From the IMG/VR virus record IMGVR_UViG_3300043434_000734, positions 128,001 through 192,000 of that record: 64,000 bases of DNA; one strand, given 5' to 3'. The DNA comes from a virus. Taxonomy: Duplodnaviria > Caudoviricetes. Shown here one piece after another: positions 29,646 to 29,758 of this stretch (position 1 is its first letter; each line of letters begins with the position of its first letter). The notes under the pieces were generated by a model that made no database searches, was not told the origin of the DNA, and worked only from the letters and a program-made list of their open reading frames with translations. A program made the position numbers and the translations under genes.

Positions 29646-29758
29646 AAACGAACAAAGAGGTCTTTAGGACCCCCTTGTCGAGATTAAGAACACCTCCTTT
29701 TCGTTTATATAAGTTATCGTTTAATGGCGACCAAACCAATTAAACTCTCTTATAAATA
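29646..29758 (-). ncRNA. Putative small structured RNA containing AAAGGAGGUGUUC
   Basis: TATTTATA (minus) at 29751-29758; two hairpins; no ORF. Confidence 0.45.

Follow-up and report, generated by a model that had tools for sequence, protein, structure and literature searches.

Comparative sequence analysis identifies RNA B, a conserved and structured small RNA of freshwater jumbo phages, as a non-coding RNA that is neither a coding sequence nor a leader element, and with which the phage probably grips the normally hidden tail of the host 16S rRNA. RNA B resembles the translation initiation region of host rpsU, the gene of ribosomal protein bS21, but offers no start codon, and it has a co-evolving partner, RNA A, encoded 27.6 kb away. 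Both RNAs lie in a 64,000-nt stretch of AT-rich jumbo-phage DNA (the window), for which 24 tRNA genes, a tmRNA and, between the tRNA array and the tmRNA, a GOLLD RNA (24457-24864, plus strand, 314 bits) are annotated. Shine-Dalgarno (SD) sequences are absent from the genes of the window. Bacteroidota genes likewise lack them.

RNA B is about 103 nt long (29646-29748, minus strand; ends inferred from conservation), matches model R1 with 107 bits and occupies a 160-nt gap flanked by two minus-strand ORFs of unknown function. The sequence noted ahead of the element on the minus strand, a TATTTATA box, is indeed present at 29751-29758. It was found in all copies with enough upstream sequence, including those retrieved by patterns without the box. 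In the relative G001, TATTTATA lies upstream of 59 of 381 ORFs on the same strand compared to 15 on the opposite strand, and the genes preceded by it include those for terminase, portal, head protease and bS21. These are late genes according to Chen 2022 (PMC9723584), and on this ground the box is a putative late promoter of RNA B.

Search patterns that did not contain the SD yielded 184 loci with 115 distinct full copies of RNA B, and patterns anchored elsewhere brought in diverged members, raising the total to 159 distinct copies, from freshwater jumbo phages. RNA B sequences are 83-96% identical between phages whose flanking genes share 70-78% identity. The conservation covers 100 nt and extends beyond the U-run, so that a GC hairpin followed by a U-run is not the sole conserved feature, and the fold z-score is -3.9 on the minus strand compared to -2.4 on the plus strand. 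A tiny ORF starting from AUC or GUG was considered and rejected, as reading frames are not conserved. Searches against Rfam 15 at both thresholds assigned no family (best E value 0.28, Yfr11, 21.7 bits against 44), blastn against GenBank phages gave no match, a literature search with the RNA B motif returned nothing relevant, and the main text of Fremin 2023, which covers about 10,000 candidate viral structured RNAs, does not mention it. A scan of GTDB recovered a single true copy, of the GUG variant described below, on a 7.4-kb phage-like contig within a Flavobacterium MAG, and thus no chromosomal family was found.

The central feature of RNA B is an extended SD of 13 nt (29688-29700, minus strand) that is complementary to the Flavobacteriales-type 16S tail with a predicted duplex energy of -20 to -23 kcal/mol. 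No stronger anti-SD complement occurs in the window or anywhere in the 324-kb genome of G001, and the 13-mer is the only match in the window even when one mismatch is allowed (0.09 expected); an exact match is expected 1.2e-3 times per window by chance, which agrees with the rough estimate of about 1e-3 per window made at the outset. The runner-up in the window (19560-19580, plus strand, -19 kcal/mol) falls into a spacer of the tRNA array. In another record (L836:13600-13830, plus strand; G001 73630-73830), a 66-aa ORF is preceded by the SD-like sequence GGAGGAGGU, which is rare in an SD-less genome.

Of the 115 copies selected without reference to the SD, 106 form the full 13-bp pairing with some Bacteroidota 16S tail: 24 are perfect for the AACACC tail, 47 for the AAUACC tail, and 35 more are fully paired with wobbles, while mismatches or bulges occur in 9. 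Conservation of the 13-mer in relatives thus holds for its pairing capacity, not for its exact letters, which recur in 24 of the 115 copies. Within the aligned SD (n=114), columns 1-5, 7 and 8 are invariant, column 6 is A or G, column 10 is A in 68, G in 44 and U in 2 copies, column 11 is U in 113, and column 13 is C or U in 113; the tolerated changes are mostly transitions. When only the loop was shuffled, 43 of 52 loop variants beat their shuffles for tail pairing at p<=0.1, but these variants are related and do not constitute 52 independent tests.

The 16S tail that had been quoted as phylum-wide proved to be one of several: AACACC occurs in most Flavobacteriales, AAUACC in Chitinophagales and one other order, and AUCACC in more than half of the Bacteroidota phylum sample. 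AACACC and AAUACC are both widespread in Bacteroidota. The two main RNA B variants parallel host tails and rpsU leaders alike, GUG corresponding to AACACC and GUA to AAUACC. Since hosts were not linked phage by phage, this is a parallel and not covariation, and both G and A at position 10 are able to pair with the AAUACC tail. A variant for the Chryseobacterium-type alternative anti-SD was not found with the SD-free pattern. The predicted duplex gain of about -22 kcal/mol, offset by about 5 kcal/mol for opening the SD, leads us to expect binding to a free 16S tail at roughly -17 kcal/mol net. The conserved complementarity, which extends to the unpaired loop, and the likeness to host rpsU leaders described next lend indirect support to an engagement of the anti-SD by RNA B.

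The same region resembles host rpsU leaders, which read ACGA(G/A)AGGAGGUGU in Flavobacterium and have the GUAUU form in an order whose 16S tail is AAUACC. Like these leaders, RNA B contains a 9-13 bp complement of the 16S tail, and a GGGGG variant was seen both in host rpsU leaders and in phages. Where rpsU leaders have an AUG and the bS21 ORF 10-13 nt downstream, RNA B has a UCG instead (29679-29681, minus strand), located 11 nt after GGAGG; this spacing of 11 is found in 86 of 115 copies, and the corresponding distance to the AUG of host rpsU is 10 in Flavobacterium and 11-13 in the order of G024. As noted for the copy in the window, no start codon follows the SD: ATG, GTG and TTG are absent from this position in all 115 copies. 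None of 91 phage bS21 leaders contains an SD. Together with the SD-less phage genes, this leaves RNA B standing alone. Among sampled host rpsU genes (L615-L643), GGAGG was present in 2 of 24 from Chitinophagales compared to 27 of 27 from the order of G024 and 30 of 30 from Flavobacterium.

Across the family, the modelled structure supports a three-way junction: GAGGU is paired with AUCUC, and the 3' arm folds into a capped hairpin of its own. The proposed 5' hairpin (P1, 29719-29745, minus strand) is confirmed and is followed by a conserved GAUAA. P1 shows two-sided changes at 9 of 9 pairs. This count and that for P4 below come from an alignment fitted to the model; P1 passes without such fitting too, with 19 compensatory cells reached in none of 500 shuffles; the rows of helices 2 and 4 were off register in the unfitted test and were left out. 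Tandem G-A pairs may extend the base of P1. Its loop UUGGUC (29729-29734, minus strand) keeps its sequence while the stem varies, with the core UGGU present in all copies and complementary to the ACCA end of tRNA and to the ACC of RNA A. A pseudoknot between this loop and CGRC was rejected: no compensation accompanies the G-to-A changes in the loop, and RNA A accounts for the R position.

The junction is closed by P2 (AAACG:CGUUU, 29646-29706, minus strand), which is kept by G-U changes and one G to A opposite U. P3 (GAGGU:AUCUC, 29680-29696, minus strand) is a weak 5-bp hairpin with a mean pair probability of 0.64 that contains half of the SD and, in its loop, the 3' half of the 13-mer; it shows no compensatory change in the family alignment and is hence predicted, not proven. 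P4 (29652-29678, minus strand) is paired in 108-114 of 114 copies per position (anchored counts), with two-sided changes at 3 distal pairs, and is capped by UUCG in 70 of 114 copies and by GNRA in 4. These caps, along with one-sided G-U changes, bear out the assignment to the minus strand. In contrast, the long hairpin with the 3' arm in which the SD was originally thought to be hidden is predicted for this copy only as an alternative fold (pair probability about 0.38). The SD appears only lightly hidden: its predicted opening cost is 2.3-6.8 kcal/mol, and positions 10-14 are predicted to be about 80% unpaired.

Similar hairpins were observed elsewhere. In gut phages of about 104 kb (L051:3304-3347, plus strand; L025, L055, L098, L101, L115), a GG-UUUGGUCG-CC hairpin directly precedes a tmRNA-like 3' end that received no Rfam call. 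In L055 this is followed by a tmRNA-like 5' end, an order suggestive of a permuted two-piece tmRNA. RAGATH-20, RAGATH-9 and a Hatchet ribozyme are found near the hairpin in these phages. Gut phages of 15-16 kb (L032:150-360, minus strand; L027, L038, L044, L062, L091, L111, L114) encode an RNA that shares this hairpin loop, is about 145 nt in length and is bounded by promoter and terminator; it has no Rfam match and is possibly a packaging-type RNA.

The original prediction overlooked the partner, and this opens rival readings of RNA B. RNA A (approximately 2003-2108, plus strand; about 90 distinct copies) is preceded by the same TATTTATA box (1995-2002, plus strand) and was detected in 27 of 44 carrier records, a set that includes many fragments. 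It comprises a hairpin with a UUGAA loop (2054-2069), an invariant GACC (2075-2078) and a terminator-like hairpin (about 2081-2108), all on the plus strand. As in sRNA/anti-sRNA systems, A and B are separate trans-encoded genes with conserved complementarity. Three plus-strand segments of RNA A pair with RNA B: 2029-2039 with B 29696-29706 (H1, 11 bp, run lengths matching in 23 of 28 genomes), 2015-2025 with B 29671-29681 (H2, 11 bp, with intermolecular covariation in 46 genomes) and the less conserved 2008-2014, which is able to pair with B 29656-29662 (H3, 7 bp in the window). At one A:B position, the 46 genomes have A-U in 19, G-C in 18, G-U in 9 and A-C in none; G-C arose at least 4 times on a tree computed with the site masked from a short alignment with modest support. 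Genome G412 carries an additional U-A to A-U swap in H2. Energies of cognate and non-cognate A:B combinations differed at only p = 0.057. The substitution pattern shows that RNA A and RNA B co-evolve as pairing partners, and part of the conservation of RNA B is explained by RNA A. An 18-nt complement of the RNA B SD region at 46271-46310 (minus strand) was discarded; it is antisense to the start of a coding ORF (46258-46608) and probably due to chance.

H1 masks the AAAGG half of the SD, and the same segment of RNA A is complementary to host rpsU leaders. RNA A could then be the effector, acting as an antisense on the host rpsU leader, with RNA B as a sponge or target mimic that is rpsU-like only to bind A, a reading we consider possible though not probable. 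It would explain the AACG upstream of the SD, which is common to RNA B and host rpsU and is read by RNA A and not by the 16S tail. Pairing of RNA A with host rpsU leaders is predicted at -14 to -21 kcal/mol, and in one clade its seed CCUCUCGUU matches the common host leader perfectly but its own RNA B imperfectly, with -21 kcal/mol on rpsU compared to -8 kcal/mol on other host start regions. However, the RNA A of the window prefers rpsU only modestly (-14 kcal/mol, equalled by 7-12% of other host start regions) and binds RNA B far better (-30 kcal/mol) via H2, which is absent from rpsU. RNA B keeps GAGGU and a RUUY loop outside the footprint of RNA A, and the shared promoter type leaves little room for timing.

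The extent of the pairing suggests another reading, which we find doubtful: A and B would be halves of a bimolecular structural RNA or RNP, with a role for instance in late assembly or protein scaffolding, and the resemblance to an SD would be secondary or left over from a captured rpsU leader. The predicted duplex comprises up to 29 intermolecular pairs (-32.6 kcal/mol), it is backed by covariation and the common promoter box, and both RNAs have further conserved loops, of which the GACC of A could contact the GGUC loop of B. Yet only -4 to -8 kcal/mol remain once the cost of unfolding is subtracted, weaker than the value of about -17 kcal/mol for the free 16S tail. The complex loops out 14 nt of RNA B, the looped-out segment AGGUGUUC would still pair with the tail (-10.7 kcal/mol), and a relic would not retain tail complementarity in diverged clades.

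The invariant single-stranded motifs of RNA B (UGGU loop, GAUAA, AAC) and the similar hairpin in unrelated phage RNAs would also suit titration of a host protein, such as bS1, bS21 or an RNA chaperone, that recognizes the P1 loop or the rpsU leader, with no pairing to rRNA. We regard this as improbable, as variation in RNA B obeys base-pairing rules against the tail and rpsU control has been described as rRNA-based, not protein-based (PMC9976891).

A cis-acting role, be it as 3'-UTR or terminator of an upstream late operon, as a downstream leader or as an mRNA for an AUC-started tiny peptide, is very improbable. A same-strand ORF lies directly upstream in 105 of 105 copies, P4 plus the U-run is terminator-like, and an AUC occurs 6-9 nt after the SD. 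Nevertheless, RNA B has its own box, single-base indels break any frame, and a terminator scan was negative within the window. The neighbours vary. Upstream genes belong to 3 families; downstream, 33 copies face a convergent tmRNA, 20 are followed by an ORF on the opposite strand and 37 by one on the same strand, the latter drawn from 9 families. No constant same-strand gene follows RNA B across the family as it would a riboswitch or other cis-leader, which argues against a leader function. In the window, the tmRNA is convergent with RNA B, with its 3' end 1.8 kb away; unlike RNAs A and B, it has a host-type TAnnTTTG promoter element upstream (27400-27435, plus strand) and is therefore probably expressed earlier. 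That the plus strand is the functional RNA, an anti-SD-like antisense to the host rpsU leader to which it is complementary over about 15 nt, has a negligible probability given the UUCG and GNRA caps, the G-U changes and the promoter orientation.

The biology of bS21 provides the setting for the preferred reading. In Bacteroidia, bS21, bS18 and bS6 bury the 16S tail (Jha 2021, PMC7797042), and the extended SD of rpsU is used only by 30S subunits that lack bS21, thereby restoring bS21 (McNutt 2023, PMC9976891). Among carrier records checked, 21 of 26 encode bS21, including 10 of 10 over 200 kb, and the misses are fragments of 20-54% completeness. Four bS21 phages of 635-735 kb lack both RNAs. 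The co-occurrence of RNA B and bS21 reflects one clade, compared without a bS21-less sister. In G001, bS21 is encoded about 12.5 kb upstream of RNA A; by this position the gene would fall upstream of and outside the window, and it was not seen in this genome. In relatives with 70-78% identity, bS21 lies reversed among head genes (terminase, portal and protease), with a gene order as in the clades of Chen 2022 (290-335 kb, PMC9723584). Similarity of phage bS21 proteins was uninformative for host assignment. A Flavobacterium genome (G230) has three extra, weaker bS21 matches on contigs C196, C197 and C207, probably binned phage contigs; RNA B was not found in it.

We propose, with belief and doubt about evenly balanced, that RNA B is a start-less decoy, gated by RNA A, that binds bS21-vacant 30S subunits at their anti-SD and tilts bS21 occupancy towards the phage protein. 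RNA B would act late and in trans as a copy of the host rpsU leader, presenting the rpsU-like 13-bp site in a weak hairpin with an open loop. With this site and no start codon, it would bind bS21-vacant subunits and outcompete host rpsU mRNA, shutting down the rpsU rescue. Translation of phage bS21, whose gene has no SD, would be unaffected, and the vacancies would fill with the phage protein. RNA A, under the same promoter type and covering half of the SD, may set the level of free RNA B or release it. The original suggestion of an sRNA or switch that captures 30S subunits is upheld with respect to a small RNA, given its sequence identity, stem covariation, variable 3' neighbour and box; general capture is unlikely, the anti-SD being hidden in ribosomes replete with bS21 (PMC7797042), and the bS21-vacant pool (PMC9976891) is the plausible target. 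The duplex of RNA B and tail may in addition protect the exposed tail from RNase R; the RNase R and bS21 sites overlap, and an SD oligonucleotide protects 30S subunits against this enzyme (PMC10901742). More tentatively, and on balance against our expectation, both RNAs may form a bS21-exchange device in which RNA B pairs with the entire 16S tail, draws it out of the bS21/bS18/bS6 pocket or holds it outside, blocks rpsU rescue and shields the tail, and RNA A strips or resets RNA B for loading of phage bS21.

With the rpsU leaders of bS21 autoregulation in Bacteroidia (PMC7797042, PMC9976891), RNA B shares a tail complement of up to 13 bp, the upstream ACGA, the start spacing, and the GGAGG/GGGGG and GUG/GUA variants; it differs in lacking a start and ORF, and in being a stand-alone phage gene with a three-way junction, a 5' hairpin domain and a second RNA as partner. 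Its carriers resemble the bS21-encoding Bacteroidota jumbo phages of Chen 2022 (PMC9723584) in genome size, GC content and late expression, a paper in which non-coding or intergenic RNAs and tmRNA are not mentioned. The phage anti-sRNA and sponge pairs AgvB-GcvB, AsxR-FnrS and SprY-RNAIII (PMC12197685) likewise consist of two trans-encoded pairing RNAs, one mimicking an mRNA target; however, A and B are both phage-encoded and co-promoted, their presumed end target is rRNA, and no Hfq context is known. A Val-tRNA fragment of Haloferax (PMC5711459) has similarly been proposed to occupy the small subunit in competition with mRNA, whereas RNA B has a dedicated gene, would use anti-SD pairing and is predicted to be selective for bS21-vacant subunits. 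The SD oligonucleotide used against RNase R (PMC10901742) is an SD-only RNA shielding the tail, as proposed for RNA B, but it is synthetic and was used with Bacillus, while RNA B would be natural and regulated.

Our literature search, which was incomplete, turned up no natural small RNA reported to act by anti-SD pairing. Even if ribosome binding should fail, A and B are a conserved, co-evolving pair of late phage RNAs undescribed in the sources searched. McNutt 2023 speculated on unknown phage products aiding bS21 exchange (PMC9976891), and the RNA pair is a concrete candidate for such products. If the exchange device holds true, ribosome composition would be remodelled by a natural RNA through its pairing with rRNA. 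The finding bears on why many aquatic phages carry bS21 and on how this protein enters ribosomes despite host autoregulation.
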